This document shows, piece after piece, positions 25,956 to 44,942 of a stretch of DNA of 64,000 nt. The number at the start of each line of letters is the position of its first letter. The stretch's first letter is position 1. This DNA is from a virus: the IMG/VR virus record IMGVR_UViG_3300043570_002098; one strand, 5' to 3'. The notes beneath the pieces are model-generated. The model did not search any database, was not told where the DNA came from, and was given only the letters and a program-made list of their open reading frames with translations. A program made the position numbers and the translations under genes.

Positions 25956-26197
25956 TGAGTCAATTTATTTCTTCTTTTATTGAATCCATAAATCCAAAAC
26001 CAAAGATGAAATTTCACGCTAACTTACATAGAAACCAATGGTCAATATATCCATTACCTTTTGTTTATTTTTATTTTGAAACATGTCAACCAGATTCTCA
26101 TGTATCAATTTGGAAAAACAAAATATGTGGAGTATATTTGTCCTTTAATTGGTTGAAACATACTTACAACATCGGAATCCACAAAACAATAAACTAA
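25955..26197 (+). CDS. Hypothetical protein
   Basis: 80 aa, coupled by TAATG overlaps on both sides. Confidence 0.6.
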   Translation: MSQFISSFIESINPKPKMKFHANLHRNQWSIYPLPFVYFYFETCQPDSHVSIWKNKICGVYLSFNWLKHTYNIGIHKTIN

Positions 26198-27267
26198 TGT
26201 TAGAGATTTTAGAGAAATATTATACTGATGGTTTGTTACATAAACAAACACATCCTACTAAAGATTTGACTATATGGAATTATTCTCCTAAAGTTCAATA
26301 CGAAAGATTGTGGGATGATATTACTTTGCAATGCCGTGGATTGGTGACCAATTCAAAAGGTGATATTGTTGCAAGACCATTTAAGAAATTCTTTAACTAC
26401 GAAGAACATAAACCAGAAGATATTCCAAATGAAACTTATGTTGTTTATGAAAAGATGGATGGATCATTAGGTATTCTTTTTAATTATGAAGGAGAATGGA
26501 TATTATCCACTCGTGGTTCTTTTACATCACCGCAAGCAATTAAAGGAAAAGAAATTCTTGATAGACACGACATCAGTGCGTGGAGAAAAGACAACACATA
26601 TTTGTTTGAAATTATTTATCCTGAAAATAGAATTGTTGTTGATTACAAAGGTGAAGAAAAATTAGTTGTTCTTGGTGCTTTTCATACTGAAAGTGGAATG
26701 GAAATACCTGATAGTAGTTTATTTTGGACACAAGATTCAGGATTTGAAGTTGCTATGACATACAAAACTTGGGGAGAAGGATATGATTTACTTAAAGAAG
26801 AAATATCTAAAGATAGAGAAGGATATGTAATTAAATTTAAGAATGGTTTTCGTATGAAAATCAAAGGAGAAGAATATAAAAGATTACATAAAATATTAAC
26901 CAACTTTTCATCCAAAGATATTTGGGAATTATTGAGGGATGGAAAACCTATGGATGAATTTTTAGATAGGGTACCTGATGAATTTTACAAGTGGGTTAAA
27001 CAACAAGTGAGTTCTTTTGAATATGCCAAATACAGAATTGGTGAACATTGTGGTAAGATACACGATTATTTTAGATATGGAAAATATGGTGATGTGGACC
27101 CAATGCCAACAAAAAAAGATTTTGCGTTACATTTAGAAAAATGTAATGTTGAGACATTTTATAGACCAATATTATTTGCAATGTGGGACGGAAAACCATA
27201 TGAACATATTATTTGGAGAATAATGAAACCTAAATACGAAAAACCATTTAAGAAAGATGAAAATTAA
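26197..27267 (+). CDS. RNA ligase (T4 Rnl1-like)
   Basis: CRGLV, RPFKKFFN, EKMDGSLG adenylation motif, FEII, EGYVI, KIK; start MLEIL at 26197. Confidence 0.9.
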   Translation: MLEILEKYYTDGLLHKQTHPTKDLTIWNYSPKVQYERLWDDITLQCRGLVTNSKGDIVARPFKKFFNYEEHKPEDIPNETYVVYEKMDGSLGILFNYEGEWILSTRGSFTSPQAIKGKEILDRHDISAWRKDNTYLFEIIYPENRIVVDYKGEEKLVVLGAFHTESGMEIPDSSLFWTQDSGFEVAMTYKTWGEGYDLLKEEISKDREGYVIKFKNGFRMKIKGEEYKRLHKILTNFSSKDIWELLRDGKPMDEFLDRVPDEFYKWVKQQVSSFEYAKYRIGEHCGKIHDYFRYGKYGDVDPMPTKKDFALHLEKCNVETFYRPILFAMWDGKPYEHIIWRIMKPKYEKPFKKDEN

Positions 27268-27745
27268 TAATAGATTGAGATTATACCTTGACGATATAAG
27301 AACTCCTGTGGATGATGATTGGATTGTTGTGAGAAATTATGATGAATTTGTTGCACAAATAAAATTACATGGATTAGGTAATTTTGAAGTTATATCCTTA
27401 GATCATGATTTAGGTGAAGGTGCTATGGTGGAATACTATACAAATGTAAAAAATAATTATATGTTGGATTACAACAACATAGAAGAAAGAACGGGAATGG
27501 ATTGTTGTAGATATTTGGTTAGTGAGAGTATGAACGAAAAAATACCCTTACCTCAAGTATATATACATTCCGCAAACCCTATTGGTTCCGCAAATATGAT
27601 GGGATATATCAACAATTATTTAATGAATTGTAGACTACCTCAAACCTGTGTAAGAGTTCAAATTAATCACACCATTAATGAAATCCACATGTTATCCCCT
27701 GAAGCACGTAAAGCAAAGTGGGATCGTAGTATGGAGAATGAATAA
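27257..27745 (+). CDS. Cyclic-phosphate-processing Receiver-domain protein
   Basis: LYLDDIRTP, ISLDHDLG, TGMD, IHSANPIG. Confidence 0.82.
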   Translation: MKINNRLRLYLDDIRTPVDDDWIVVRNYDEFVAQIKLHGLGNFEVISLDHDLGEGAMVEYYTNVKNNYMLDYNNIEERTGMDCCRYLVSESMNEKIPLPQVYIHSANPIGSANMMGYINNYLMNCRLPQTCVRVQINHTINEIHMLSPEARKAKWDRSMENE

Positions 27746-27812
27746 TTCTTGGATATTCAAAAAAAATCATTATTTTTACGTTCATAACTAAACAAACTAA
27801 ACACTTACCCAC

Positions 27813-28151
27813 ATGGAAAATTTGGATCAACCAAAAAGAAGAAAGAAACCTTATAAAGAATTGATTATCAATGGAATTTATAAGGATTGGAAAAGTTTTT
27901 ACGAACCAAACAAAGAAGACATTTATAAATCTATAATTGAAATTTTTGAGGAGTTTAAAAACACAAGAAAAAAATCTTTAGTATTAAAACTTTCAGCTAA
28001 GTTTAAAAACACTGATTGGAATACAGAATTTGAATTTCATCGTAATGAAACCATTGTTTTAAAAAGAGATATTTTACCTTTTTTTGAAGAAAATGAAGAT
28101 TATGAAATGTGTGGTCAAGTATTAAATTTACATAAAGAATTGACTTCTTAA
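27813..28151 (+). CDS. Protein with C-terminal UVR-like motif
   Basis: FFEENEDYEMCGQV. Confidence 0.55.
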   Translation: MENLDQPKRRKKPYKELIINGIYKDWKSFYEPNKEDIYKSIIEIFEEFKNTRKKSLVLKLSAKFKNTDWNTEFEFHRNETIVLKRDILPFFEENEDYEMCGQVLNLHKELTS

Positions 28152-28174
28152 AATATAATTAATATATTAGTAAA

Positions 28175-28241
28175 GTATCAGGAGAGAGGTACATTTATTT
28201 TTTGTCAAGTCCTCGAGGTTTATACTTCGGGGATTTTTTTT
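28175..28241 (+). ncRNA. Putative antisense sRNA targeting the envelope cluster
   Basis: TTGACT-N17-TATATT (28140-28168); terminator 28210-28241; 27/32 identity to 42641-42672 and partial matches at several minus-strand start regions. Confidence 0.7.
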
Positions 28242-29847
28242 ATAATACCATTCTACTACCTATTTGGAAATTACTTAAAAAATCAGAAAATGGTTTGGTG
28301 TTTCCACTCATTTTGTAGTTTGCGGAGAACCCAAATCTCTTACTAATTTTATAATCAAATGCTGCACCTAATAAAAATCCCATATGTCTATTGACTGTTG
28401 TTACACCCGTTGCACTATTATAACTTATAGGTGCAAACATTGTAAATACCTGTGGTGATATTGTTAATTTTTTATTATACTGATAAGGTTTAGTCCAAAA
28501 CACAATTGCAGATGTAGCCATATTGTATTCAAACCCACCCGTCTCATCGTTTTTAAGTAATAGATTAATTACACCCACATTATAACCATATGTTCCTTTT
28601 TTTGCAGTTGGTTTGATGTATGTATATCCTAATAAATTCATATAGTTTCCACCTAAGTACGCAATTCCAGTTCCGTATGAATGTATTGCGTCTAATTGTC
28701 CATCTTCGGTCATTCCCATTTTTGTTATACCACCCGTCATTACGATTGAACTTAAATTACTATTCACCATCAATCCAGCACTATAACTCACATCACCTGC
28801 TAACGATGATTTACTAAGTCCTAATGATATAGACGCTAAGAAACTACCCGGAGTTGCTTCCATAACACTTATATCCGATGCCAATAGTGTTGGATTTGTT
28901 ACCTCTTGTTTTTTCTTTTTTTCTTCTTCTTTTTTCTTTTCTTCCTCTTTCTTTTTCTCTTCCTCTTTTTTAGCTTCTTCTTTCTTCTCTTCTTCTTTTT
29001 TGGCTTCTTCCTTTTTCTCCTCAGTCTTTTTTTCTTCTGATTTCTTTTCTTCGGTTTTTGCTTCTTCTTTCTTTTCTTCTGTTTTAGCTTCAGTTTTCTT
29101 TTCTTCGGTTTTTTGTTCTGCAGGTTTGTCCGATTTAGTTTCAGCAGGTTTTGCCTCCGCGGGTTTTGCTTCAGCAGGTTTTGCTTCTGTTGATGATGAA
29201 CTACCACCACTTGCAGGAGGTGGAGATGAACTACCACTTGCGGGTGGTGGTGCAGCTGCCGGTGGAGGTGCTGCCGTTGGTGGGGGTGCAGTGACTACGG
29301 GTGGTGGGGGTGGTGGTGCAATGTTTATTGGTGGTGGTGTTGCTGCATTTGCCGCTGCAGAACTTGCTGCCGCACTTGCCGATGAACTTGCTGCCGATGA
29401 TGCCGATGAACTTGCAGCCTTTGCCGCAGCCTCTGCAGCCGCCTTTGCTGCAGCATCTGCGGCAGCTTTTGCGGCGGCGTCCGATGCCGCTTTTGCTGCG
29501 GCATCTGCAGCTGCCTTTGCGGCTGCGTCAGCGGCAGCTCTTGCTGCAGCATCTGCGGCAGCTCTCGCGGCAGCTTCTTGTGCCAATCTTATATTATCAT
29601 TTATAGGACAAGGAGTTGAAAATATTGAATTTACCCATACTTGAAACGCACCACTACTCATGTCAGCTAATGTAACTATTTTAGATTTACCTCTAATAAC
29701 TGCAACCGTTTGATTTTGACCAAAGGGAATTGTTACCACATAGACTTTATTGTCACATGGATCAATATATGTTTGTGTTATAGTACTTTGACTAAACGAC
29801 TTAACATAAAAAAATAATATTAGGAGAGAGATAATATATTTTTTCAT
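28240..29847 (-). CDS. Exported protein with Ala/Pro/Lys-Glu stalk and C-terminal beta-barrel-like domain
   Basis: Signal peptide; (AAAD/AAAK)n, poly-Pro and EEKK repeats; C-terminal alternating beta strands (LGAAFDYKISKRFGFSANY). Confidence 0.7.
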   Translation of the reverse strand: MKKYIISLLILFFYVKSFSQSTITQTYIDPCDNKVYVVTIPFGQNQTVAVIRGKSKIVTLADMSSGAFQVWVNSIFSTPCPINDNIRLAQEAAARAAADAAARAAADAAAKAAADAAAKAASDAAAKAAADAAAKAAAEAAAKAASSSASSAASSSASAAASSAAANAATPPPINIAPPPPPPVVTAPPPTAAPPPAAAPPPASGSSSPPPASGGSSSSTEAKPAEAKPAEAKPAETKSDKPAEQKTEEKKTEAKTEEKKEEAKTEEKKSEEKKTEEKKEEAKKEEEKKEEAKKEEEKKKEEEKKKEEEKKKKQEVTNPTLLASDISVMEATPGSFLASISLGLSKSSLAGDVSYSAGLMVNSNLSSIVMTGGITKMGMTEDGQLDAIHSYGTGIAYLGGNYMNLLGYTYIKPTAKKGTYGYNVGVINLLLKNDETGGFEYNMATSAIVFWTKPYQYNKKLTISPQVFTMFAPISYNSATGVTTVNRHMGFLLGAAFDYKISKRFGFSANYKMSGNTKPFSDFLSNFQIGSRMVL

Positions 29848-29853
29848 TATTCG

Positions 29854-30582
29854 TTATTCAAATTTTTCATTATAATCTTTTATTGTAAATGGACAATATA
29901 CTGAATATCTAATGTCTTTTGATAAGTTTTTAGTTACCTCATGTACGTAATTGTATTTTTGATGTTCAATCAACACACATTTATTAAAATTTGGTAAAAC
30001 TTCTATTTCACCATTTTTAGTATAAAGTTTTAATAATGACCCATCATCAAATTTTCTATCGTTGTTTATAAAAAATACAGCAGTAAATAATCTTTCACCA
30101 TTTGGGTCACTATCAAAATGTTTCTTAATAAATGATCCTTCTGGATATACATTTATATGACCAACTAATGAATCTTTAAAATTTGGTTTAATTTTTTTAT
30201 TAAATAATTCAAATAATATGTTTTCGTAACATTTAGATATTAGATCATAAATTCCATTAGTTTTTAACAAACTACTATTATGTGTTAATAAAAAATTAAA
30301 ATAATCATTTTCATTAAATCCATATTGATCATTTAATTTATTTAAAAAACAATAATCTGTATAATTCAATGAATATGAATCTACTATTTTATTGTATCTT
30401 ATTGGATCTATTTCTTTAACTTTATTTTCCACATCATTTGACCATTGTAAAAACCCTAACGAGCTATTAATCTCATCAACATTTACGTCAAAATTAATTA
30501 ATGATGTATTAAGTTTAACAAACTCATCTTTAGTAAGATAATTTTCTAAATCAAATATTTTATAGTCAAAATCTAAATTCAT
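29854..30582 (-). CDS. 2OG-Fe(II) oxygenase (prolyl-hydroxylase-like)
   Basis: YPEGSFIKKHFD, RLFTAVFFIN, PNFN, HEV, RYS. Confidence 0.8.
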   Translation of the reverse strand: MNLDFDYKIFDLENYLTKDEFVKLNTSLINFDVNVDEINSSLGFLQWSNDVENKVKEIDPIRYNKIVDSYSLNYTDYCFLNKLNDQYGFNENDYFNFLLTHNSSLLKTNGIYDLISKCYENILFELFNKKIKPNFKDSLVGHINVYPEGSFIKKHFDSDPNGERLFTAVFFINNDRKFDDGSLLKLYTKNGEIEVLPNFNKCVLIEHQKYNYVHEVTKNLSKDIRYSVYCPFTIKDYNEKFE

Positions 30583-31427
30583 TATTTGTTATTTAAACCT
30601 ATTGATATTTGTGTGTATCCTCTTATTGGGTCGGTATCTAATTTTAATGTAACGAATTTAAAATCTTTTATAATACCAACTTTAAATGTGGTAAATGATG
30701 AATTTGATTTTGGAAATGAAATACCACCTAAGTCATCTTTACCTTGCCATCTAATAACTTCATTACCAAATCCTACCATACCATGTATTCCTATTTTACC
30801 AATTCTTTTACCACCACCAACATAGAAAGTTGATTCTTTTTTCCAATCTTCTTTACTAAGTGGAAAGTCGACATTGTTAATTTGACCATATGGATAATAG
30901 CTATTTTGGTCTATTGCGTAAGTCATTACATAATCCATAATAAAATATCCTCTCTTGTCACCAATCGTTCCCCAATAAGAAATTTGTTTATTATTTGTAT
31001 GTCCAAATCCAAAGGAGGTATAAACACGTTCTTTTCTAATAGTATCTCTTTTTCCACCTTCATATATATGAATTACACTTCTTTGTCTCCATCCGTAATC
31101 ATCATACCAAATATAAGGCATTGGTTGATACCATCCCCAGTTTCCCCAATAGTAACCAAATTGATTATTTCTATTCCAATTTTGAACACGTACTCTACCA
31201 CGTTGGTCTGGTTGTGATTGTTGAGGTTGATTATTTCTCCAACTACTTACATTATTTTGTTGTGGTACAGATGGTTGAACTCTTGTTTGAGTTGATTGTG
31301 ATGTTTGTGATGATGCTGGAACACTTCCACCAGTTTGTCTCCAAGAACTAACTTGGGAATATAACATTATTGTGCAGAATAATATTAATATTAATATTAA
31401 ACCTGTAACTAATAAAACCTTTTTCAT
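30582..31427 (-). CDS. Exported protein with probable C-terminal outer-membrane beta-barrel
   Basis: Signal peptide, Q/S-rich linker, W/Y-rich segment, then amphipathic beta strands. Confidence 0.6.
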   Translation of the reverse strand: MKKVLLVTGLILILILFCTIMLYSQVSSWRQTGGSVPASSQTSQSTQTRVQPSVPQQNNVSSWRNNQPQQSQPDQRGRVRVQNWNRNNQFGYYWGNWGWYQPMPYIWYDDYGWRQRSVIHIYEGGKRDTIRKERVYTSFGFGHTNNKQISYWGTIGDKRGYFIMDYVMTYAIDQNSYYPYGQINNVDFPLSKEDWKKESTFYVGGGKRIGKIGIHGMVGFGNEVIRWQGKDDLGGISFPKSNSSFTTFKVGIIKDFKFVTLKLDTDPIRGYTQISIGLNNK

Positions 31428-31603
31428 ACTGTTTCAGTTAAAATTGTGGTTAGTAAATAACCGGTTATTATTGGGAATGGTGAAAATATTAAAAAAAAGA
31501 ACAATAACCTCCAAACCAATGGATCAACATTTGTACGGTGACTTAAACCACTACATACACCAAAAAAAACTTTGTCGTCGTGAACTCTTTTAAACTTTTT
31601 CAT
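31424..31603 (-). CDS. pspC: PspC-domain membrane protein (59 aa, absent from the ORF track)
   Basis: MKKFKRVHDDKVFFGVCSGLSHRTNVDPLVWRLLFFFLIF...GYLL matches the PspC pattern; TATTTATA 4 nt upstream; ATGA overlap with next gene. Confidence 0.85.
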   Translation of the reverse strand: MKKFKRVHDDKVFFGVCSGLSHRTNVDPLVWRLLFFFLIFSPFPIITGYLLTTILTETV

Positions 31604-31627
31604 ATAATATAAATATTAAAAAAGGGG

Positions 31628-31861
31628 TTATAAAACCCCTTTTAAACATATTCTATCTAATTCTTCTTGCCTTAAACCTATGGTTGAATCTATTTGTCCT
31701 CCGTCGGATAAAATGTTTACTAAATAAAGACCAAATTTTTTATCACTTATCTCAATTTCTTGCCCATGTATAAACCCCATATCCATCAATTTTAATCTCA
31801 TACATGGTGTACAATTTTCACAAGGATTATTTTGTGGAACGTCCACTACTTCATATTTCAT
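31628..31861 (-). CDS. FeoA-like SH3 domain protein
   Basis: RLKLMDMGFIHGQEIEI...IGLRQEELDRI; N-terminal CxxCxxC. Confidence 0.7.
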   Translation of the reverse strand: MKYEVVDVPQNNPCENCTPCMRLKLMDMGFIHGQEIEISDKKFGLYLVNILSDGGQIDSTIGLRQEELDRICLKGVL

Positions 31862-32589
31862 TATTTCGTGAATATACCTTTTTTAATCATTCTATCAAGG
31901 ATGTTAGCACATGCAATGTCTAAAGCTTTCTTTGTTGCAATACTAATTGTTGATTGATTGAACTTAATTGGGTCAATGGTCGCATCCGATAAAAGGGTTA
32001 ACTCTCTTTTTGTTGTTGCCTCACCTAAACCTGACCCACCAAATACTACACCTGTTTCAGCATCAGTAAATCTAACCTGAAGACCTATACGAGTTACCAT
32101 ATTGTCTTTAATACCGTCTTTTAGGTTAATAGTTTCGTCTTCTGACACCGAGTAGTCATAACACTCAATCGTAACAAAATACTTCGCCAAATTGATTTTA
32201 CCACGACCGTCTAATTTATTCTCAGAAATACCCGCAGCAGACGCTTGGAATTGTTTTACCATCCTATTCTTAATTTCTGTCTTATCCTCGGTAAATTTGA
32301 ATCTATTTAAGTTTTCAAGGTATTCCATTGAAATGTTAGCAACACCCAAACCAACACGTTTTTCTTTTAACTCAGGATACATTTCATACATCTCATCAGA
32401 AATGCCTGCCTTTAATATTTGAATTGGAATTTGAGGACCGTCGTAATCCATGTAAGCACTTATGTCTCGTTTTTTTTCAAAATCTGCTTTATACTGTTCG
32501 GTTTTTGTTGATCCTATTGTTTGTCCCATTGCATTATCTGCAATTAAACAGGTTAAAATAAAAATTAAAAATATTATTAAATGTCTCAT
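31861..32589 (-). CDS. CsgG/TolB_N-fold exported protein (curli-secretion-pore-like)
   Basis: Signal peptide; LENLNRFKFTE, GKINLAKYFV, LQVRFTDAETGVV.GGSG, A.KKAL pattern. Confidence 0.65.
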   Translation of the reverse strand: MRHLIIFLIFILTCLIADNAMGQTIGSTKTEQYKADFEKKRDISAYMDYDGPQIPIQILKAGISDEMYEMYPELKEKRVGLGVANISMEYLENLNRFKFTEDKTEIKNRMVKQFQASAAGISENKLDGRGKINLAKYFVTIECYDYSVSEDETINLKDGIKDNMVTRIGLQVRFTDAETGVVFGGSGLGEATTKRELTLLSDATIDPIKFNQSTISIATKKALDIACANILDRMIKKGIFTK

Positions 32590-32598
32590 AGTTTTATA

Positions 32599-33342
32599 TT
32601 AAGGGTTCCATTTATTTAATGCACTTATGTAGTTACTCGTCATATGATCTTTGGCAGTATTACCTGTGAATACAGCTTTAAGATATTCACCAACTCTTTG
32701 CCAATCAATCATCCATTTTTTAACTTTACCCTCACTATCAATACGTAATTCAGTATTAACGTGGTGATATCCAATATTTGGGGCACGAGTAACAACATCT
32801 AAATTATTAACAATCCTTAATGATTCAATTGATGATTTATCAAAGTTCTGTTTGAATACTTTATTACCAACTCTTGGACTACCGATAGTACAACATATAA
32901 TTTTATTTGATTTATAAATTGAATAAATCTCATATGCACATAAGGTAGAAACTGCAGCTCCCAAACTGTGACCGCAAACAATAATATTATCAACTTCACC
33001 CTCCCCACCTAATGTGGATAATGCTTTTTCAAATGATTTATAAGTTTCGTCTTTAACAGCGTCCCAAGATGATTTAAATCCAATGTGAACTTTTTCACCA
33101 TCTTGAACAAATGGAACTTTATCAATTGATGCGTCGTTTTGGAAATCCTTTTTAGAAGAACTTCCTCTCCAAACGATATAGATAGATTTATCCTTTGTGG
33201 CAACAAATCCTTGTGTATCTGTTTTTTTATCGTCAATCCATTTAATTAATTTTAATCTTTGTGCTTTAAAATCAATGTCTTTTTGTTCTGAATATACTTT
33301 CTCGGTTAAACCGACATTGTATAGTATTTCGTTTTTTGTCAT
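32599..33342 (-). CDS. Class 3 lipase
   Basis: VWRGS, VHIGF, GHSLGAA, GSPRVGN, DVV..P, H motifs. Confidence 0.92.
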   Translation of the reverse strand: MTKNEILYNVGLTEKVYSEQKDIDFKAQRLKLIKWIDDKKTDTQGFVATKDKSIYIVWRGSSSKKDFQNDASIDKVPFVQDGEKVHIGFKSSWDAVKDETYKSFEKALSTLGGEGEVDNIIVCGHSLGAAVSTLCAYEIYSIYKSNKIICCTIGSPRVGNKVFKQNFDKSSIESLRIVNNLDVVTRAPNIGYHHVNTELRIDSEGKVKKWMIDWQRVGEYLKAVFTGNTAKDHMTSNYISALNKWNP

Positions 33343-33366
33343 TGTGTATTTGTTTTTGTTATAATA

Positions 33367-33603
33367 TTACTGTCTTGCTGGCCATATACCACGAGTGGCT
33401 ATTATGTATTTCATACCATCCATAGGTGGTTCCATTTTAGGTACCGCAAATAAATTTGGTGTTGCTCCGTATCTATCTTGCAGTAATACATATAACGCCT
33501 CATTTTCCCTTATGTTTAATAATTGTCCGTTGCATTCTACATATCCTTGAGGAGCGTAGCCTCCTGCAAATAATTTAATTGCCCCAATTAATTCTTCTTC
33601 CAT
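33367..33603 (-). CDS. Stand-alone tail-collar-domain protein
   Basis: IGAIKLFAGGYAPQGYVECNGQLL...LY.LL..RYG. Confidence 0.8.
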   Translation of the reverse strand: MEEELIGAIKLFAGGYAPQGYVECNGQLLNIRENEALYVLLQDRYGATPNLFAVPKMEPPMDGMKYIIATRGIWPARQ

Positions 33604-33606
33604 AGT

Positions 33607-34680
33607 TTATTGTGTTTTTGTTTTAGATTGATCACCCTTCTTTAAAAATATATCAAATATTGTTTTAGGACTGTATTCTACAAGTAATATTAAACCCTTC
33701 CTCAACGTAGAGTTTTTTACAACGTGATTTAAAATATCTTTAATAACCTCTTTAATGGCGAAATTTTTAGTGTCAAAATATGTTCCATCAAAATATCTTG
33801 GACTTGTTCCCTCACCACCTGGTGAACCGTGATGAGCACCTATAGAGGTACGCCAATAATCAGCATGATTTTGCCATTCAGGAACTGAAACCAATTCAGG
33901 TGAATCAAAAAATAAATTCCACGATAATACATTACCCTTTTGTAACATATTACCAGTACCTAAGTTAAAAAGATTTAAAAAGTATTGATTAAACTTATCT
34001 AATTTGTGATCACTTGTTGTTACCATTCCTCCTATTTCTACATTGATATGTCCTGTACTATATGCTTCTTCCTTTATTGCAAATTCAGGATTTTTAAATC
34101 TTGGTGATAAACCCTTTCCGAGTTGAAATATAGGTTCTTTAGGATTTCCTGGTAGATGTGTTAAAACACGAATAGCATTTTCTTTGTTGATAGGATACTT
34201 ACGAGAACTGTATTTTAATAATGGCCAAATTGCTCTTAATAGACCACCTTGATTTTCACCTGGTGTTAACCAAATTTTTCCCTCAACCATCATATCCGCA
34301 GCAATTTCCTTTGTGTCTTCATTAACCCATCCTCTTTGTCCCGTAACTGTTACTTCCACATTGATACAAATCTCATCTCCAATCCACATCCCTTGTTGAG
34401 GACAGATTATGGAATAAATTCTACCTTCATTGGTATATCCTATTCTTGAAATATAAGGAGCAAATTGTACATAACAACGTTTTGGGTCTTTTTCCCCATT
34501 TAGGGTATTCCAACTAAACATTGGCCATTTAACACCCCATTGTCTTTGTAGTAAATTAATGTTATCCATATTACCCAACATAGGTAATGAGGTTAAATCT
34601 GTGGTAGGATATAGCATTTTCTTTTGTTTTTCAGATGGAAAACCACCTTGCCATCCCGTAGGAATTTGTTCGTTTGTCAT
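33607..34680 (-). CDS. Hypothetical protein
   Basis: 357 aa ORF after TATTTATA (34691-34698). Confidence 0.7.
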   Translation of the reverse strand: MTNEQIPTGWQGGFPSEKQKKMLYPTTDLTSLPMLGNMDNINLLQRQWGVKWPMFSWNTLNGEKDPKRCYVQFAPYISRIGYTNEGRIYSIICPQQGMWIGDEICINVEVTVTGQRGWVNEDTKEIAADMMVEGKIWLTPGENQGGLLRAIWPLLKYSSRKYPINKENAIRVLTHLPGNPKEPIFQLGKGLSPRFKNPEFAIKEEAYSTGHINVEIGGMVTTSDHKLDKFNQYFLNLFNLGTGNMLQKGNVLSWNLFFDSPELVSVPEWQNHADYWRTSIGAHHGSPGGEGTSPRYFDGTYFDTKNFAIKEVIKDILNHVVKNSTLRKGLILLVEYSPKTIFDIFLKKGDQSKTKTQ

Positions 34681-34731
34681 ATTCTTTTAATATAAATACA
34701 CAAAAAAGGGAGTTTTTAACTCCCTTTTATA

Positions 34732-34980
34732 CTAACCTTCTGTTTCTTCTTTCTTTTTGTGAGAGAATTTATCCAAAGTATCTGCACCCATTCCAATTCC
34801 CGTGATTAACATCACCGCATTCACCAATTCAGGTGATGGAGCGAAATCCGCGTGAGAGAACGAATTTAAAATCATCGTAATACATAGGAATAAAGCACCT
34901 ATCATTGCTATTACCGGCTTTACCGATATTGATCCTCTTTCATCTTTGAAAATTTCAATAACCCATTGTTTAAAATTCAT
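34732..34980 (-). CDS. Small 2-TM membrane protein (holin-like)
   Basis: Two hydrophobic helices, charged C-terminus. Confidence 0.55.
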   Translation of the reverse strand: MNFKQWVIEIFKDERGSISVKPVIAMIGALFLCITMILNSFSHADFAPSPELVNAVMLITGIGMGADTLDKFSHKKKEETEG

Positions 34981-35009
34981 AGTTTTTTATTTTTTGTCTT
35001 TTGTTTATT

Positions 35010-35678
35010 TTATCCTTCCGTATGCATTTCTGCATTTTCATCTTTAATTTTACCACATTTTAAACACTCCTCAATGCCATCACCATCCAAGTCACCCCAA
35101 ACGTGTTCACATTGTCTATGTGCGAAATACATATCTATTTTACCGTCACCATCAAAATCAATACCATCTATTGTACCATCACCATCTTCATCAACCTCAA
35201 CACCTGTTCTTGGTTGTGATTTGAAAGGACTTTCAACAACTTGAGGATTATTTGGTTCTGATTTTACCTCTACTTTGTTTGCCTCAATTAAGTTGATTTC
35301 ATGTGCGTTCTTTGCGGCTTGCACAAATGCATCTGGAATCAATGGAGTGTTATTTGGTGGAGTTACAGGCATATCAGCAGTATTACTCATTGACGTACCA
35401 TCTTCTTCGTCCATTTTCTGAACTAACATCTTATCCTTATCAGTATCACTAAACCAATAGTCAATGATTTTACCATAACTACCGATAAACGCTCCTAATA
35501 ATAATAAAAGAAGTTCTTTCCATTCTCCTTCAATCGTAGATTTATTTAATATACCAAAGAACATTCCTCCAATAATAATCATAAATCCACCTAACACTAT
35601 CGCAGTGATATACCACCTGCGTTTCATCATATTTGCTAATAAATCCTTAAATCCGCTTGGCGGTTGTTCATTACTCAT
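35010..35678 (-). CDS. 2-TM membrane protein with DxDGDG Ca-binding repeats
   Basis: Two TMs, IIDYWF, DEDGDG/DFDGDG/DLDGDG and CEH..CLKC. Confidence 0.7.
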   Translation of the reverse strand: MSNEQPPSGFKDLLANMMKRRWYITAIVLGGFMIIIGGMFFGILNKSTIEGEWKELLLLLLGAFIGSYGKIIDYWFSDTDKDKMLVQKMDEEDGTSMSNTADMPVTPPNNTPLIPDAFVQAAKNAHEINLIEANKVEVKSEPNNPQVVESPFKSQPRTGVEVDEDGDGTIDGIDFDGDGKIDMYFAHRQCEHVWGDLDGDGIEECLKCGKIKDENAEMHTEG

Positions 35679-35695
35679 CTTTTTTTAATTTAAAA

Positions 35696-36010
35696 TTACC
35701 ATTTAGGTGCTTCTTCTTTAAACTCATCACCTTCTTTTTTCTTAGGTTTTGGTGCTGGCGCCGGTTTAGCACTACCGTCTCCACCTTTATTGATGATTAC
35801 AGTTTTACCACCACCCGATTGTTGAGTTTGTGAATTGGTAATGTTGATTACAGGTGCCGCTTGTTGAACGGGAGCCTCTTTTTCGTCACCACCTGTTAAT
35901 TTTGTTGTAAACCAACCACCCACACCTAATGTGATGGTGCTTACTAAACCGATAATGATGTTCTTAATTGAACCACCTGTACTTTCTGATTTTTCTTGTT
36001 CTTCTGCCAT
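35696..36010 (-). CDS. Single-TM protein
   Basis: One TM followed by low-complexity tail. Confidence 0.65.
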   Translation of the reverse strand: MAEEQEKSESTGGSIKNIIIGLVSTITLGVGGWFTTKLTGGDEKEAPVQQAAPVINITNSQTQQSGGGKTVIINKGGDGSAKPAPAPKPKKKEGDEFKEEAPKW

Positions 36011-36042
36011 AATTTTGTGTTTTTTGTCTTTATATAATTATC

Positions 36043-36411
36043 TTAAATTTTATTAAAATCTGTAATTCCTAACATATTACCCGCAACATCGTATAATGCA
36101 ATCCTATACGCTGAAGATGGTAAAGCGGATGTATACACCCTTAAAATGTTATCACCAACCTTAACCTCACTTGTTGATTTTGATACCACTCTATTGGAAA
36201 TATCAAAAATCTTAACGGTTACAGTTTGAGCAACATCACTTTTTATGTTCATTGCAACTTCATTTGTTATAAATGAAGTTTCTAATTTTAATCCCACTGA
36301 ACTTGAGATTTTAAGGTTGTCACTAATCACTTGTGGTTGCATTGGTATGTCTACTTTTCTACATCCAACAAGTAAGATTAATCCAAAGAGTACGAGAGAT
36401 ACTTTTTTCAT
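36043..36411 (-). CDS. Lipoprotein consisting of a T9SS C-terminal-domain-like fold
   Basis: Lipobox LVGC-RK; VTVKIFDISNRVV...SALPSSAYRIAL resembles a type A CTD. Confidence 0.6.
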   Translation of the reverse strand: MKKVSLVLFGLILLVGCRKVDIPMQPQVISDNLKISSSVGLKLETSFITNEVAMNIKSDVAQTVTVKIFDISNRVVSKSTSEVKVGDNILRVYTSALPSSAYRIALYDVAGNMLGITDFNKI

Positions 36412-36423
36412 TTTTTGTCTTGT

Positions 36424-36777
36424 TTAATTTATAATTATTCTTGTTTTACCTATTTGATTATTATTTTGATCCTTTAACACGACACTTAGGTTTTTTGTCG
36501 GTAAAGTATTAGTAAATATTTTAAGAGAGTTTAATCCTACTTTACCAGTAAACCTTTCCCTTGATACTACTTGGTTTTGAACCGTATCAATCATTGTTAA
36601 AGTATATACTCCTCCTGTAGTTAAATTAATATTAATAACATCCCCGTTTTTTACCTTATTTTCAGATAAGGAGAAAAATTCCACATTTGTCGGTGACACA
36701 GGTGTAAACGGAACCATTTTTTTGCACGATATTATAAAAACCATACAACACAATAATATAATTTTGATACGTTTCAT
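36424..36777 (-). CDS. Lipoprotein, paralogous CTD-like Ig fold
   Basis: Lipobox IISC-KK; YTLTMID..NQVV...NTLPTKNLSVVL. Confidence 0.55.
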   Translation of the reverse strand: MKRIKIILLCCMVFIISCKKMVPFTPVSPTNVEFFSLSENKVKNGDVININLTTGGVYTLTMIDTVQNQVVSRERFTGKVGLNSLKIFTNTLPTKNLSVVLKDQNNNQIGKTRIIIN

Positions 36778-36780
36778 ATT

Positions 36781-37674
36781 TTAAAATTGAAAGTTTGTTC
36801 CTATCATAAATAGAATTGGATTACTCTTTTTATACCCAACCGATTCACTTAATTTATTCCAAGTTGTGTTATATCTAACATTAGTATTCAATACAAATTT
36901 TTTAGTTATTTTCCAATCAATAGATGTACCATAATATAAGTCCAAATTGAAATCATCTACATATGCTAAATCCGATTCAGTCCCATCTTTGAATACTTTG
37001 TAGATATCACTCATTGCAAATATTTGTGGTGAGATGTTTACTCTCTTTGTTTTGAATGTATACGTATACATTGCCATACCTCTATAACTAATTTGACTTG
37101 ATGATGGCATTTGTGGATATATTAAATCTTTAAAATCACCATTTTCATCTACTATATATTTTCCTTCCCATTGACCTTGATAACTTCCCCAAAACGATTT
37201 TGACGCAATCACACTATAACCAAATGTTCCAAACTTTTTAGTTCTGAATACATCAATGAATGATAGAGAAATATCTTTTTGAAAATCAAAATCGGTTGAA
37301 TAGAATGATTGTAATGTAGTAGTTCTTGTATTCGTATTTCTACTGAAACCATAACCCACACCATAGTAGTTCCATATTGGATTTATTGATGATGCGAATG
37401 AGTGACCCCATTTACCATTTTTAGATGATTTACTATATCCTAAATTTAAGGTAGTAGATACTTGTTTTCCAATTACACCTACTGATAAATTTGAGGATGA
37501 AAGAACATCTTTTGAAAAATCAATATATGACTCTAATATACCTAAATTATTCCAATCACCACTTTCTCCAAATAATTCTTTTGGTGATAGTTGTAAGGTA
37601 TCTGGTTTTACAATTTGTGCGTTTGTAACAAATGTTGTCAAAATTAGTGACAGAATTAATAATAGTTTTTTCAT
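36781..37674 (-). CDS. Outer-membrane beta-barrel protein
   Basis: Signal peptide; alternating beta strands; terminal IGTNFQF BAM-type signal. Confidence 0.7.
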   Translation of the reverse strand: MKKLLLILSLILTTFVTNAQIVKPDTLQLSPKELFGESGDWNNLGILESYIDFSKDVLSSSNLSVGVIGKQVSTTLNLGYSKSSKNGKWGHSFASSINPIWNYYGVGYGFSRNTNTRTTTLQSFYSTDFDFQKDISLSFIDVFRTKKFGTFGYSVIASKSFWGSYQGQWEGKYIVDENGDFKDLIYPQMPSSSQISYRGMAMYTYTFKTKRVNISPQIFAMSDIYKVFKDGTESDLAYVDDFNLDLYYGTSIDWKITKKFVLNTNVRYNTTWNKLSESVGYKKSNPILFMIGTNFQF

Positions 37675-40283
37675 TAATTTATTTTTATTTTTAATGATTT
37701 TCCATCTTTATTAACTGCGTCCGTTGAACCTATTGAAATTAAACCCAATATGTTATCCAATTTTGTGTTTGACGAAAATGAAATCTTATATGTTGTTGTC
37801 TTATCTAAACTTGTACTACCATCACTTACCAAAGAACCTAAATTAATGTAATTACCCTTGTTGGTTGCATAGTTGGTAGGTGAACCTTTTGTGGTAAATT
37901 GTATTCCTTTAAAATTTAAGACCGAATTATCGTAGTTTAATTGAAATTGAGTTCCTACCACGTTTTGTTGTAATGGGTCAAATGTGATGTAAGCATAAAC
38001 ACTATCACCAATTACTTCGGTCATAATAGATGCGTTGATGTCAGTTGATATTGGTGTACTCATTGATGTTCTAACTGTCATCGTTGTGATATTATTTGAT
38101 GGAGGAGTTGCCGAATGTGATAAGTTTACATCACCTTTCCAACTAACAGCCAAATCGTAGTTATAACTTATTACATTATCTAATAAACTAAAATTATAAG
38201 TTTTTCCTGCAAAATTTTGAAAAGAACTCCAAGTTGACTTACCAATTTTATTATAAATTGAATCAGGTATCAAACGTATTGTATTATCCAAAGTATAATT
38301 ACTAACTAAGTTTTGTACACCCGTTAAATTTTGTAATAATTTGAAACAATCCGCTTCATTAAATAAACCATCATCATTTACATCTGCGTTTTTATATTGA
38401 ATTCCGTAAGTAAACTCATTACCACTTTGATTTCCAAATATACCACCATTTGCCAATTCCTTAAATGCCAAATACACATCTGATACTGTTACGATACTAT
38501 TATACAAAGTTTTTAATTGTGTACTATCATATTCTTGTAATTCCATTTTGTGTTGTTTGAACGCACCTTGTTGGGTAAGTCCAATACCACATGCAAATGC
38601 ATAGTCGGTATTTGAACCATTCATATTTCTAATATATTGATTATATGCAGAAGTTCCATCGGTTACTTTTGTTAATGGAGATGGAACAGTATATTGTGCC
38701 CAACCATTATTGTCATGTGATGTATATGTAACAGGCCCATCATACGCATCTAATATTTTTACATTTGATATTTTCGTTGGGTCTATACTTCCAACTTGTC
38801 TCATATCAATTAACAATCTACTATTACCATTTAACCAACTTGCATTTGGATTTGTATAAGACCACTCTACCCCACCCGGAGATATAGTTGCTTTGTATGA
38901 TGCAGGTGCCGATACGAATTGGTAACTTAATCCCCATCCACCATAACCCGATGTTGATACTCCATTACGAGTTGAACCAACATATTCACTTAACCCCTGT
39001 ACTACTTTAATATAAACTTCTTTTGTTTGTCCGTCTGATATTACACCAGCATGTACCGCTGCGGCTGGAATATATGAATCACTTGTATAGATATCGGTTC
39101 CCCATATTGCTCCACCTGTTGTACCTGTTATTGTTATTCTATATATCTTACCAATATCCGATTCATTAAATTGTTGCATATCGGATGTTCCTGCTGTTAA
39201 TGGAATACCAGTTGTATAAATCTTTGAAGTATCTATTTGATTTGAAAGAAATACTTTACCCAAACCACTCAATGATTTATAACCATCCGCCGCTGCCCAA
39301 TTTGAATATGTGTCGTTTCTTTTGAATATCTGTGCTAAGAATTTTGTTTTATCTATTGAAGTATTAAACTTAAATCCAAATAATGCTTTTATAGTTTCTC
39401 CGTTTGAATGTGTTACTGAATTGGTATAGAACTCCGTAAATGTTGCATCATCGGGATTAGACCAAGTTCCATATTCAATTACATATGGGTTACTCCAATT
39501 GTTTGATAAGTCATTCCATTGATTACCATTCCATTTTGTTACTGCATAATCCTCACTATGATTATATCCGTTTGGTTCACCATTTGCCCAATTATTATAC
39601 ACACCTGGTCGGTTTCCGGCAGTTGGTCCGTTGGATGTTTTCATCACAGTCCCCTTTTCAGGACCCGCATCAATTACCCAAGTTCCATCTATAACTTCAT
39701 CTGTTGCTGCAAACCATATATTTGATTGTGGTACATTAGCTTGAATAAATAAATCTTCCGATGATGATGTTAGTGTTAATAGATAACCCGTCTGTCCTTT
39801 GAATGTTGTTGTTAACGCAATTGCTCTTGCGTTTGTATAAGTTGTACCGGTTGTTACGGGTTTGTAAAAGTGACCATTTACTCCATTGAAATAATATCCT
39901 GGTTGATTAACAGTTGCGGCCACTGAAATATTAATATCACCAATTACTGTTCCTGTGTTTATTTTTAGAGACGCTAACGCAGTATTAATACTTGCCATTG
40001 TTCCAGTTACCACTAAACGAGTTTTATTACCACTTAAAGTAAATCCACTTGCTGCCGTTAAACCCGTTGTTGTGTTTAATACGAATGTTGTACCTGATGG
40101 TGGATTGACTAAACTTATAGAAGCAAGTAAAGTAGATGTTGCACCAAATCCACTTAATGAAAATCCACTAGCGTCTTGTCCTGTGGTATTCACAGTAAAT
40201 GATTTAGGGTCTGGAGCCGTTACTGACTGACCAAACCCTAAAAATGATATAAATAAAAATAATACTATTAATAGTTTCTTCAT
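37674..40283 (-). CDS. Exported multidomain adhesin: C-type lectin + LCCL + dockerin-like + cohesin-like
   Basis: YNNWANGEPN...EDY...WNDL (CTL); IWGTDIYTSDS..AAAVHAG...STRNGV (LCCL); DVNDDGLFNEAD (dockerin/EF loop); GTQFQLNYDNSVLNF (cohesin-like). Confidence 0.75.
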   Translation of the reverse strand: MKKLLIVLFLFISFLGFGQSVTAPDPKSFTVNTTGQDASGFSLSGFGATSTLLASISLVNPPSGTTFVLNTTTGLTAASGFTLSGNKTRLVVTGTMASINTALASLKINTGTVIGDINISVAATVNQPGYYFNGVNGHFYKPVTTGTTYTNARAIALTTTFKGQTGYLLTLTSSSEDLFIQANVPQSNIWFAATDEVIDGTWVIDAGPEKGTVMKTSNGPTAGNRPGVYNNWANGEPNGYNHSEDYAVTKWNGNQWNDLSNNWSNPYVIEYGTWSNPDDATFTEFYTNSVTHSNGETIKALFGFKFNTSIDKTKFLAQIFKRNDTYSNWAAADGYKSLSGLGKVFLSNQIDTSKIYTTGIPLTAGTSDMQQFNESDIGKIYRITITGTTGGAIWGTDIYTSDSYIPAAAVHAGVISDGQTKEVYIKVVQGLSEYVGSTRNGVSTSGYGGWGLSYQFVSAPASYKATISPGGVEWSYTNPNASWLNGNSRLLIDMRQVGSIDPTKISNVKILDAYDGPVTYTSHDNNGWAQYTVPSPLTKVTDGTSAYNQYIRNMNGSNTDYAFACGIGLTQQGAFKQHKMELQEYDSTQLKTLYNSIVTVSDVYLAFKELANGGIFGNQSGNEFTYGIQYKNADVNDDGLFNEADCFKLLQNLTGVQNLVSNYTLDNTIRLIPDSIYNKIGKSTWSSFQNFAGKTYNFSLLDNVISYNYDLAVSWKGDVNLSHSATPPSNNITTMTVRTSMSTPISTDINASIMTEVIGDSVYAYITFDPLQQNVVGTQFQLNYDNSVLNFKGIQFTTKGSPTNYATNKGNYINLGSLVSDGSTSLDKTTTYKISFSSNTKLDNILGLISIGSTDAVNKDGKSLKIKIN

Positions 40284-40286
40284 AAA

Positions 40287-41939
40287 TTATTCAACAATCA
40301 AATTAATCTTGTTTCCGTTTCCATCAACCGCGTCAGCTAAAACTGTATAAAATAAACCCGCCGTATTTGTTATGGTTTCTTTCGGTATAAAAGTTAATTT
40401 GTAAGGTGTCCCTATTTTAATTCTACCAGTTTTCATTTGATCCATTGAACCGAATGTTAATCTACCATCTCCATTTGTTGAGAAGTTAGTTACGTTTGGA
40501 CCGGCGTCAAATGATATATTATCAAATGTTAATTTTGAATTGTCATATTGTAAGATTACCTCTAATCCCGCTAATCCGTCTTTTGTTAATGTTCCCGTTA
40601 ATACAACTTTACCATTAACAATTGTAGAGTTTAATCCTAATGTTGCCTTTTCAATTGTTGGTGTATATGACATTGATTGAACTGAAAATGATTTGATTGA
40701 TGAGGTACTTTTTTCATTAATTGAGTTTAAATAAGTTCCTGCCGCAATTCTACTTGCGATTACATCAGGGTCAGATGAATGAGACCAATCCAAATCACCA
40801 CCCCATGCGTATACCATATCTACCGATTGATTTGATGATGTTACTTTTGTTTTGTAAGTAGGTACACCATCTAACCAACTTTGATTTAATAAACCACTAT
40901 ACCATTTGAATAAACCACTATTTGTACTCAATGGAATCCATGCACTATCTTTTACATTAGCGATACCCATTACATATGCAAACATATAATATGAATCACT
41001 TTCACTAAACACACTTTTACTCTTTGTAATTTGACCTATATTCTTTTGTAATTGTGGTCTTGTAAAATAAGTTTTTACACCCGCGATATCCGTTTGTGAA
41101 ATACCTAAAAATGCTTTATATGCGTCTGATACTGTTATAATGTTATTCATAAAAGTTTTTCCTGTTGCACCATACATCCACACCGCCAAACTATCTCCCA
41201 CTTTCACTTCTGTTGTAAATGTCGCCTCACCACTTGCATCTAATACTTTTGTTGCAATTGGTGTTACTGTAAAATCAATTGTACCATCTGTTTTTATTGG
41301 AAATAATGCAACACTGTGTGCGGTAATATCATATCCTGTTGGGAATAAAACTCTTAGTTTGAACTGAGACGTATTACCAACAACATTTGTTAAAGACATT
41401 GTACCTGGATCAGTTGTAATTGGTGTAATGTATGCACTTGTTGCATCAATTGAATATGATAAGTCTAATTTATGAATGTCGGTATACGCACCCAAATCTT
41501 TGATTACATATTTTTGAGTTGCAACATCTCCGTTGATAGATGCATCGGTTCTTTGAACAGTTAATTGACCAACATTCCAATCTGCGTTGGCTGCGTAACC
41601 CCATGGAGATATTAGATATTGTGCATATAAATCTTTAGCTGTAATACTATTTGCTGCACTTGAAGTAAATTTATAAGACGACCAACCTGTGTAGAATGTT
41701 TGAACTGATGTTCCTTGTGAGAACGTCGTTGAAACATATGAAAGTGCCTTATTGTTAAATTGATATCTCAACCAAAAATAACGAGGCGTGGTTGTACCTC
41801 TCGCAACCGTGTATTTAACTGAAACCGTATCACCAACCTTTAACCCTGTTGTAGGTGTCACAGATTGGTTGACAGTTAATTGTGCATTTGTTGCTATGGA
41901 TATTACTAGTATTCCAAGTAGCGTTAATAGTTTTTTCAT
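40287..41939 (-). CDS. Exported protein with degenerate dockerin-like and cohesin-like modules
   Basis: Signal peptide; ITVSDAYKAF, WGGDLDWSHS and GLEVILQYDNSKLTF parallel the C-terminal half of 37674..40283. Confidence 0.65.
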   Translation of the reverse strand: MKKLLTLLGILVISIATNAQLTVNQSVTPTTGLKVGDTVSVKYTVARGTTTPRYFWLRYQFNNKALSYVSTTFSQGTSVQTFYTGWSSYKFTSSAANSITAKDLYAQYLISPWGYAANADWNVGQLTVQRTDASINGDVATQKYVIKDLGAYTDIHKLDLSYSIDATSAYITPITTDPGTMSLTNVVGNTSQFKLRVLFPTGYDITAHSVALFPIKTDGTIDFTVTPIATKVLDASGEATFTTEVKVGDSLAVWMYGATGKTFMNNIITVSDAYKAFLGISQTDIAGVKTYFTRPQLQKNIGQITKSKSVFSESDSYYMFAYVMGIANVKDSAWIPLSTNSGLFKWYSGLLNQSWLDGVPTYKTKVTSSNQSVDMVYAWGGDLDWSHSSDPDVIASRIAAGTYLNSINEKSTSSIKSFSVQSMSYTPTIEKATLGLNSTIVNGKVVLTGTLTKDGLAGLEVILQYDNSKLTFDNISFDAGPNVTNFSTNGDGRLTFGSMDQMKTGRIKIGTPYKLTFIPKETITNTAGLFYTVLADAVDGNGNKINLIVE

Positions 41940-41941
41940 AG

Positions 41942-42589
41942 TTATTTAACAAATAATTTAGTTATTAATTTATCCGCCGATTTTTTTAAGGCGTTACTAA
42001 GTGACGTTTGATTAAATTGACCTCCCTCATCAACAATTAATGTTGACATTGATATTTCTGAAGATGATTCTTCGACCATTATTTCCTTTTCTTTTTTACC
42101 ATCCTTATATAAAGTTCCTTTCATACGAATGACAACTTCTTCTTCATTTTTGTGAAAAACAGAAATGTTCTTTTTTGTTGTAAGAACATCTAAATAAATG
42201 ATTTGAACTTTTAATTTGTATGGGGCTGAAGGTGTTAAATCATAACCCTTTTCTTGTAAGAATTCTTCCAATGTATTTTTTACACCGAAAGCTAAATTTC
42301 TATTACCTGCCAATTTACCCATCTTAACTTCATTGGTAACACTCTCCACCCAAATATGGTCTTCAGCCACATAGAATATATTTTCAGGTGAGTTCTTGAA
42401 TGTACCATCAATCCTCCACGAAATCCAATTTGAGATGTCTCTTGTTATTTCTCTTTGGCCTGAAAATTCCAAAACCGCCATGGATATACCGAATATCATT
42501 CCAAATATTACCCATGATATCGCAAAGTATAAAAAACCTAAAAAGATTTTTTCTTTAATATTAATTGATAGTGTTCTTAATTTTTCCAT
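41942..42589 (-). CDS. Membrane-anchored periplasmic protein (possible CsgG/LptE-like alpha/beta fold)
   Basis: N-terminal TM; LAFGVKNTLEEFL and FNQTSLSNALKK echo 31861..32589. Confidence 0.5.
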   Translation of the reverse strand: MEKLRTLSINIKEKIFLGFLYFAISWVIFGMIFGISMAVLEFSGQREITRDISNWISWRIDGTFKNSPENIFYVAEDHIWVESVTNEVKMGKLAGNRNLAFGVKNTLEEFLQEKGYDLTPSAPYKLKVQIIYLDVLTTKKNISVFHKNEEEVVIRMKGTLYKDGKKEKEIMVEESSSEISMSTLIVDEGGQFNQTSLSNALKKSADKLITKLFVK

Positions 42590-42684
42590 ACTGTTCTGAG
42601 TTTACAATTCCCTCAGAACCACATATTAATATAATACATAATATCTTGAGAGAGATACGTTTATTTTTTGTCTGTCTATAAATA
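42590..42684 (-). promoter_or_regulatory. Envelope-cluster leader: TATTTATA promoter, sRNA site, uORF and hairpin
   Basis: Motif 42677-42684; sRNA-complementary site 42641-42672; uORF MYYINMWF* 42639-42613; hairpin gttctgag/ctcagaac 42593-42619 next to the ATG. Confidence 0.55.
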
Positions 42685-42784
42685 CTATTGAATTAGTCTA
42701 CTGATGAAACTCATGAGTTATTTTATTGAAAATATTTTGTTTTCATAAAAAAATATCTTATATTATAATATTAAATAAATTATT

Positions 42785-43705: not shown

Positions 43706-43778
43706 GCCTCGTTAGCTCAGTTGGTAGAGCAAGTCATTTGTAATGATTAGGTCTGCGGTTCAAGTCCGTAACGAGGCT
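43706..43778 (+). tRNA. tRNA-Thr(UGU)
   Basis: Cloverleaf; anticodon loop TTTGTAA; GTTCAAGTC; CCA not encoded. Confidence 0.92.
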
Positions 43779-43780
43779 CA

Positions 43781-43963: not shown

Positions 43964-44048
43964 AACTTTTTGAAACTAACTCAACGAGGACTTTGTTAAC
44001 CAGTGCATGACACGGAGGTGCAACTTAAGTTGGGTTGGAATCAAACAC

Positions 44049-44904: not shown

Positions 44905-44942
44905 CATTTTGTTTATTGGAATATTTTTTGTATATTATCATC

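Follow-up and report, generated by a model that had tools for sequence, protein, structure and literature searches.

The gap between two convergent gene sets of an uncultured virus raises the question of whether a small regulatory RNA is encoded there and, if so, which genes it would act on. The locus belongs to IMG/VR record IMGVR_UViG_3300043570_002098, a single contig of 91.5 kb (31% G+C) with phage-like genes; a stretch of 64,000 nucleotides of this virus (the window) was analysed, and positions are counted from its first nucleotide. A sequence-only reading of this DNA had placed an antisense RNA gene in the gap.

Genome context

The relatives of the 91.5-kb contig are IMG/VR viral contigs, some of them larger than 300 kb. 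The contig carries five tRNAs (Thr, Asn, Met, Ser and Glu; 43706-44905), a full-length GOLLD RNA (46467-46869; 296.9 bits) and a tmRNA with an unusual predicted tag (49341-49737), grouped on the + strand downstream of a PhyH gene. Promoters of the Bacteroidota type (TTTG-N18-21-TAnnTTTG) were found 13 times in the genome against 3.5 expected; they precede the tRNAs, the GOLLD RNA and several genes, and often have the start TTTGGTATATTC in common (e.g. at 7322(-), 22336, 43637, 45920, 47581, 69938, 74445(-) and 84314(-)). These promoters point to a host among the Bacteroidota, the phylum that related freshwater phages appear to infect. A-rich leaders are a general feature of this genome.

To the left of the candidate sRNA gene lies an RNA-repair-type operon (25527-28151, + strand), which encodes an AAA_33 kinase, a T4 Rnl1-type RNA ligase, a cREC receiver-domain protein (cyclic-phosphate processing) and a 112-aa ORF ending at 28151; in related loci the sRNA unit is invariably found 3' of this operon and on the same strand. 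To the right, a minus-strand run of 17 genes (28240..42589, about 14 kb) forms an exported-protein cluster, many starts of which encode signal peptides or lipoboxes, and which includes a class 3 lipase, a 2OG-Fe(II) oxygenase and an LCCL/lectin/cohesin protein. Apart from the lipase, the oxygenase and the LCCL/lectin/cohesin domains, most cluster proteins were assigned to no family in PHROGs, Pfam or NCBIfam, and neither the 112-aa protein nor the 535-aa product of the convergent gene 28240..29847 (minus strand) had a match in these databases.

The 535-aa protein consists of a signal peptide, a low-complexity linker and a C-terminal domain; the latter represents a virus-only family with weak leads to outer-membrane beta-barrels, and the gene may encode an outer-membrane protein. 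Tandem repeats of 12 nt (29390-29584 and 28916-29129) encode the Ala-rich and Lys/Glu-rich low-complexity linkers that separate the signal peptide from this domain. In each of the 17 relatives checked, the minus strand downstream of the RNA-ligase operon encodes a homologue of the C-terminal domain; this homologue starts within about 400 nt of the sRNA end in the relatives with a mapped sRNA. At the far end of the cluster, the divergent gap to the PhyH gene contains a conserved block, ACTGATG-AAA-TCAT (42700-42725, + strand, and relatives), for which there was no Rfam match.

The probable sRNA gene and its conservation

The elements described by the sequence-only reading at 28140-28241, i.e. 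a TTGACT-N17-TATATT site, a + strand unit of about 65 nt (about 67 nt as delimited here) and an intrinsic terminator, are all present. The -35-like TTGACT (28140..28145) falls within the last codons (Leu-Thr) of the 112-aa ORF and is followed, 17 nt further on, by the -10-like TATATT (28163..28168; TAnAnT). Transcription is predicted to start at 28173-28176, which places the candidate sRNA at 28175..28241 (+ strand). The RNA would consist of three parts: a 5' hairpin of 5-6 bp, GUAUC[AGGAGAGA]GGUAC, with a conserved purine loop GGAGAGAG (28175..28192); a single-stranded, U-rich linker AUUUAUUUUUUGUC (28193..28206), of which the UUUUUGUC part is invariant; and an intrinsic terminator hairpin with U-tail (28207..28241), the end of which overlaps the stop codon of 28240..29847. 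The terminator stem comprises 13 pairs at 28207-28236, followed by a T-run to 28241. The 5' part had been described as single-stranded, which applies to the unpaired linker; the first 18 nt form the conserved hairpin. The 67-nt RNA folds with a minimum free energy of -21.4 kcal/mol (z = -5.0), and its 33-nt 5' stretch (28175-28207) is unique at up to 3 mismatches.

The promoter-like site is strongly conserved. TTGAC is found in 35 of 36 distinct relatives (TTTAC in the remaining one), the T, the A and the final T of the -10 element are invariant, and the spacing is fixed at 17 nt around a spacer that varies in sequence (36 distinct sequences). The invariance of the -10 element holds both where the ORF ends before the site (at least 16 relatives) and where it runs through it (at least 13). 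The TTG within the -35 element is never swapped for another Leu codon; the Leu codon four codons upstream occurs as TTA, CTT or CTC. Because the TTG is fixed and the -10 element is invariant inside as well as outside the ORF, the conservation is attributed to promoter constraint and not to coding. The sRNA gene therefore has a conserved promoter of its own, TTGAC-N17-TAnnnT, putative as to its use by a polymerase and different in type from the Bacteroidota-type TTTG-N19-TAnnTTTG promoters elsewhere in the genome. Downstream of it, GAGAG and UUUUUGUC are invariant among the relatives.

The RNA structure is conserved as well. In the 5' hairpin (88% of cells paired), variation consists of U.G/U-A and A-U/G-U changes, and the outer pair is flipped in one relative (L079). 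In the terminator stem (97% of cells paired), six of eight pairs are changed on both sides, so that a Rho-independent terminator with a U-tail is supported by covariation. The overall covariation score was 0.271 compared to 0.180 in shuffles (reached by 0/500) and collapsed when the partners were slid against each other; every covariation measure exceeded 500/500 shuffles. RNAalifold proposed an alternative helix of GAGAG with UUUGUC, both sides of which are invariant. The RNA is assigned to the + strand, because the opposite strand would have A.C in place of the many G.U pairs. The earlier view of an independent + strand unit is thus borne out by its conserved promoter signature, its covarying terminator and G.U pairs that fit this strand only.

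Other readings of the block were also considered. For a protein-coding gene, the + strand unit contains no ATG, and indels among the relatives are not multiples of three; a minus-strand ORF of 11 codons, tried as a small gene, loses its ATG in L037 and L039. A role of the block on the minus strand, as 3' UTR or terminator of the cluster, was rejected for the missing U-tail on that strand and for the change of G.U to A.C. Positions 28175-28241 (+ strand) are very probably a real sRNA gene, from which a phage small RNA of about 67 nt would be transcribed independently.

Distribution of the candidate sRNA family

Eighty related loci were fetched with the RNA ligase as anchor. The sRNA element could be aligned in 56 of these, on the same strand and 0.9-1.7 kb downstream of the ligase, and was recognisable down to a ligase protein identity of only 60-70%. 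A covariance model (R1) recovered the unit wherever a related locus carries it, at 64-91 bits, and at 54 bits in locus L080. The core motif was found in 55 viral stretches and in 0/185,579 cellular species genomes; a search for the host by exact scanning of these 185,579 genomes with the motif hence returned no match. The scan of the whole window with Rfam (release 15) at gathering thresholds gave no match at 28100-28300, and the best hit of a permissive scan, at 19.6 bits (E = 0.29), fell well short of its threshold of 49. As judged by sequence and structure, the predicted RNA belongs to no described family, and uncultured freshwater phages carry a new and widespread family of putative phage sRNAs, with more than 55 related viral contigs.

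The covariance model also recovered divergent homologues, in which the promoter, the AGAG-loop hairpin and the terminator are kept and the linker reads UUUAGUCAUUUCUUGCC or UUUUAUUUAUUUUGU (L047:13083-13155; L054:13092-13162; L043:11387-11452; L059:11328-11395; L060:10683-10750; L066:11555-11622; L076:11624-11700). The antisense of these homologues resembles a start region followed by the first codons. For the distant homologues with linker UUUAGUCAUUUCUUGCC, no convincing target site was found in the partial loci.

Complementary sites in the phage genome

All six + strand matches listed by the sequence-only reading were recovered. The most extensive is the leader site at 42641..42672, which on the minus strand is the complement of sRNA nt 2-32 and lies at the predicted 5' end of the cluster mRNA (27/31 identical to the sRNA 5' part on the + strand). 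Both regions belong to a direct repeat of 49 nt (28158-28207 versus 42625-42673; 39/49 identical) with exactly two copies in the 91.5-kb genome. Among 18,290 windows on both strands the leader was the best site, with a duplex energy of -37.1 compared to -26.5 for the next best, and the net gain after unfolding costs was -22.0.

A late-promoter-like TATTTATA box (42677..42684, minus strand) lies 4 nt upstream of GACAAAAAAUAAACG, for which reason the predicted late transcript would start at the sRNA-complementary block. Such boxes are found within 100 nt 5' of a same-strand gene start in 22 of 37 cases (expected, 6.4%; p = 2e-17), often exactly 4 nt ahead of the ATG (e.g. 4528, 14569(-), 54786(-), 56751(-), 57205(-) and 42684(-)), which suggests a class of late promoters yielding leaderless or near-leaderless mRNAs. 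The arrangement of box and complementary block is kept in the relatives with a second repeat copy. A sigma-70-type promoter was also considered for this copy and rejected, for there is no -35 element and no conservation. Between the complementary block and the first ATG of the cluster (42589), a conserved hairpin (42593-42620, minus strand) ends 3 nt before this ATG; its loop carries a GAGGGA/GGAGA purine motif, its stem is fully replaced by another complementary stem in L087 and L101, and it may represent a split ribosome-binding structure.

Two further sites are located at gene starts. The first (29817..29844, minus strand; 24/28 identical with one gap) covers codons 2-10 (KKYIISLLI) of the 535-aa signal-peptide gene, with a duplex energy of about -24 (-23.6 to -24.8) and a net energy of -14 to -20.7 depending on the mRNA window; in the -40..+35 window it is the best of 118 starts. 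The second (36393..36419, minus strand) extends from -8 to +18 of the gene for a 122-aa lipoprotein (36043..36411, minus strand; MKKVSLVLFGLILLVGC) in two blocks around the CAT, so that the AUG lies inside the duplex (duplex energy -25.7; net energy -19.3, second of 118 gene starts). A T9SS sorting-domain match of the lipoprotein is below threshold (E = 0.005). When the 118 starts were ranked by duplex energy with the 34-nt 5' part of the sRNA, 36043..36411 came first and 28240..29847 second. Full-length co-folding, in which the net energies are charged for opening both the sRNA hairpin and the target, gave a mean of -5.4 (sd 3.2) over the 118 starts and a third-best value of -13.1, and the top two lie about 4-5 sd off the mean. 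By energy alone, many windows that are not gene starts reach -24 to -26; the complementarity exceeds chance in that the leader is the best of all windows, the two gene starts are the top two of their set, and the mean of the cluster's five best sites was matched by 1/300 shuffled sRNAs.

The remaining matches are short. A U-rich match of 13/13 (34986..34998, minus strand) is a weak candidate site 6 nt upstream of the ATG of 34732..34980, with a net energy of -13.1 that is tied for third among the 118 starts and not significant alone. There is also a 9/9 match at 36020-36028 and an exact run of 10 nt within 33328-33342 at the lipase start (both on the + strand). These U-rich matches of 9-13 nt are individually at background level, as had been cautioned for the short matches from the outset.

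Co-variation of the sRNA and its sites

The complementary block is found at the start of the 535-aa orthologue in 24 distinct relatives, and cognate pairs of sRNA and site had a mean energy of -24.46 compared to -21.91 +/- 0.57 for permuted pairs (reached in 0/20000 permutations). Changes in the sRNA are matched in the target: GGAGAG-G-UA is matched by UA-C-CUCUCC in 3/3 cases, by way of a signal-peptide codon that changes from Ser to Pro; GGAGAG-A-UA by UA-U-CUCUCC in 5/5; and the longer GGAGAGAG-R-UA by UA-U-CUCUCUCC in 12/14. In the seven genomes with both sRNA and leader copy, the cognate pairs outperformed 99.5% of permutations (0.5% doing as well), and the lengths of the U-run in the sRNA and the A-run in the leader agree in 8/9 genomes; gene conversion between the repeat copies could mimic this co-variation. 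The lipoprotein site is present in relatives as well, with a weak cognate test (p about 0.05).

Independent contrasts on a tree of the ligase gene gave, for the long and short forms, four pairs with three to four concordant and none discordant, and for G/C, 2/2 concordant; these contrasts are too few for significance in a sign test (p >= 0.125). The sRNA and the 535-aa start are inherited together since they are only 1.6 kb apart. In seven relatives that keep the sRNA, the CUCUCC block is absent from the start of the 535-aa orthologue; at least one strong in-phage site is found in every close-subfamily genome that could be examined. Because the sRNA and its sites co-vary across relatives in the permutation tests, we regard the complementarity as probably selected and not as leftover duplication, in line with what the sequence-only reading had argued. 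The covariation in relatives that it had asked for is strongly positive in the permutation tests of the 535-aa start and the leader, weak at the lipoprotein start, and concordant or neutral in the few independent contrasts; linkage and gene conversion are possible causes, too.

The same data bear on two other explanations. In one, the block is only the 3' UTR and terminator of the RNA-repair operon and has no role in trans, the likeness of the sites coming from paralogous 'leader + MKK..SL signal peptide' sequences of the opposite strand or from gene conversion. We consider this unlikely, although the unit is always preceded on its own strand by this one operon, the sRNA antisense resembles a start region (GACAAAAAAUAAAUG..CUCUC), signal-peptide N-termini make up two of the targets, and the TTGAC-type promoter is unlike the other promoters of the genome. 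A terminator needs neither 33 nearly invariant upstream nucleotides nor an invariant -35/-10 pair around a variable spacer; paralogy leaves the matched changes on both partners unexplained, including the Ser-to-Pro codon change; and even a 3' UTR could still pair in trans.

In the other explanation the RNA is real, with its main role elsewhere (on host mRNAs with A-rich starts, or in protein binding or sponging), and pairing within the phage is secondary. This would account for the invariance of GAGAG and UUUUUGUC even where the 535-aa start has no match, and for the divergent homologues, which retain the architecture and not the linker. It is nevertheless improbable in view of the strong in-phage sites throughout the close subfamily and of the co-variation, which points to these sites.

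Extent of the proposed control over the cluster

The sequence-only reading had gone further and proposed that one sRNA silences the entire cluster early until late transcription out-titrates it. Among the seven top-ranked gene starts by net energy, four belong to the cluster. Overall, the cluster starts are not enriched: in duplex energy, these 17 starts have the same median as the remaining 101 (Mann-Whitney p = 0.25). The complement of the linker 3' end, GACAAAAAA, is more frequent than expected on the cluster's sense strand, mostly just 5' of an ATG (6 of 10 non-self copies in the genome; binomial p = 4e-5, in a post-hoc test). Outside the cluster, however, GACAAAAAA lies ahead of + strand genes too (69787 and 81320), and A-rich leaders are widespread in this genome. 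Every downstream gene could be influenced by pairing at the 5' end of the operon mRNA; with three strong sites only, we judge silencing of the whole cluster very unlikely, and this part of the proposal is not upheld.

That the repeats 28158-28207 and 42625-42673 are recombination sites bracketing a mobile or excisable 14-kb module, as two copies on the + strand at either side of the cluster might suggest, is extremely improbable, since many cluster-bearing relatives keep the first copy without a second one upstream of the PhyH gene, the PhyH gene is joined to the sRNA in 0/17 relatives checked (no empty site; a homologue of the 535-aa gene in 17/17), no recombinase was noted among the examined genes adjoining the repeats, and what has been conserved is a promoter, an RNA hairpin and a terminator.

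Proposed function

The reading that we prefer is that the sRNA is an antisense regulator of three sites, to which we assign a probability of roughly 0.55. A contiguous antisense face of 25-32 nt, made up of the loop, the 3' stem half and the linker, would base-pair in trans with three RNAs from the minus strand of the adjacent cluster: the extreme 5' end of the late cluster mRNA, the start codon region of the lipoprotein gene, and codons 2-10 of the 535-aa gene. The likeliest outcome of pairing would be lower expression. At both gene starts the duplex would mask the ribosome landing site, and in the leader, where the duplex is long and nearly perfect, cleavage or an altered stability of the 5' end would be the probable result. 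The conserved anatomy of the gene, the complementarity with its rank among all gene starts and the co-variation across relatives are observed; we infer the transcription of the sRNA, the sign of the regulation and its timing.

Overproduction or mistimed synthesis of exported or outer-membrane proteins or lipoproteins is typically harmful to a cell, so that a dedicated RNA brake would be biologically sensible; the predicted targets lie within the phage, and their products are exported, outer-membrane-type or lipoproteins. More tentatively, and with some doubt on our part, this may be an sRNA family of freshwater phages infecting Bacteroidota, whose antisense face was derived from a copy of the leader and signal-peptide start of the phage's own late envelope operon and has been kept matched to it. 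The RNA would then pair with two start regions and with the outermost 5' end of a late mRNA for which a T4-late-like TATTTATA promoter is responsible. If so, the phage would govern surface-remodelling proteins post-transcriptionally, in a host phylum that has neither Hfq nor Shine-Dalgarno-led initiation. The family offers a clean test case: its three sites differ in their degree of complementarity, one of them lies at a predicted mRNA 5' end, and compensatory variants occur naturally. It could show how antisense control operates where start regions are A-rich and have no Shine-Dalgarno sequences.

Comparison with known systems

MicA, RybB, MicC and MicL are trans-encoded sRNAs that block the start regions of envelope mRNAs, for which a 'five-codon window' rule has been formulated. 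The present sRNA would share with these a short length, a seed, an intrinsic terminator, several targets, and pairing over the start codon or first codons of mRNAs for exported, outer-membrane or lipoproteins. It differs in that its gene belongs to a lytic-type phage and its predicted targets are genes of that same phage, and in its much longer pairing (25-32 nt) with a seed that is partly in a hairpin loop; there is no sequence or Rfam relationship. To our knowledge, Hfq is absent from the Bacteroidota, the likely host phylum.

Phage base-pairing RNAs are, as far as we know, described almost only from phages of enterobacteria and Pseudomonas, and most are cis-antisense or act on the host. IpeX of DLP12 is linked to a phage-borne outer-membrane protein (porin) gene. 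A review of phage and prophage sRNAs covers DicF of Qin, IpeX, aQ and OOP of lambda, and an antisense RNA of PAK_P4, as cis-antisense or host-mRNA-acting RNAs in Enterobacteria and Pseudomonas, and does not mention Bacteroidota (PMC12197685). Like these, the candidate is a small regulatory RNA carried by a phage, and it adjoins a putative outer-membrane protein gene as IpeX does; unlike these, it has its predicted targets in trans within the phage, at distances of 1.6, 8.2 and 14.4 kb, and they include the 5' end of a late operon mRNA.

The c4 antisense RNA of P1 and P7 is about 70-80 nt long and pairs through a loop and a linker with repeated sites in the leader of a phage operon; it is processed from the transcript under its control and governs an antirepressor (immunity). 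In both systems, regulator and target sites resemble duplicated sequence. Unlike c4, the present sRNA has its own predicted promoter and terminator, on the strand opposite to its envelope-type targets. GibS and MasB of Bacteroides thetaiotaomicron are Hfq-independent and direct a single-stranded seed at A-rich, Shine-Dalgarno-poor start regions. The present sRNA would likewise set a single-stranded seed against A-rich start regions independently of Hfq, whereas GibS and MasB are chromosomal, with short seeds and no detected homology to it. Taken together, the mechanism proposed for this phage RNA looks, by analogy, like that of the sRNAs that occlude envelope gene starts and like that of c4.
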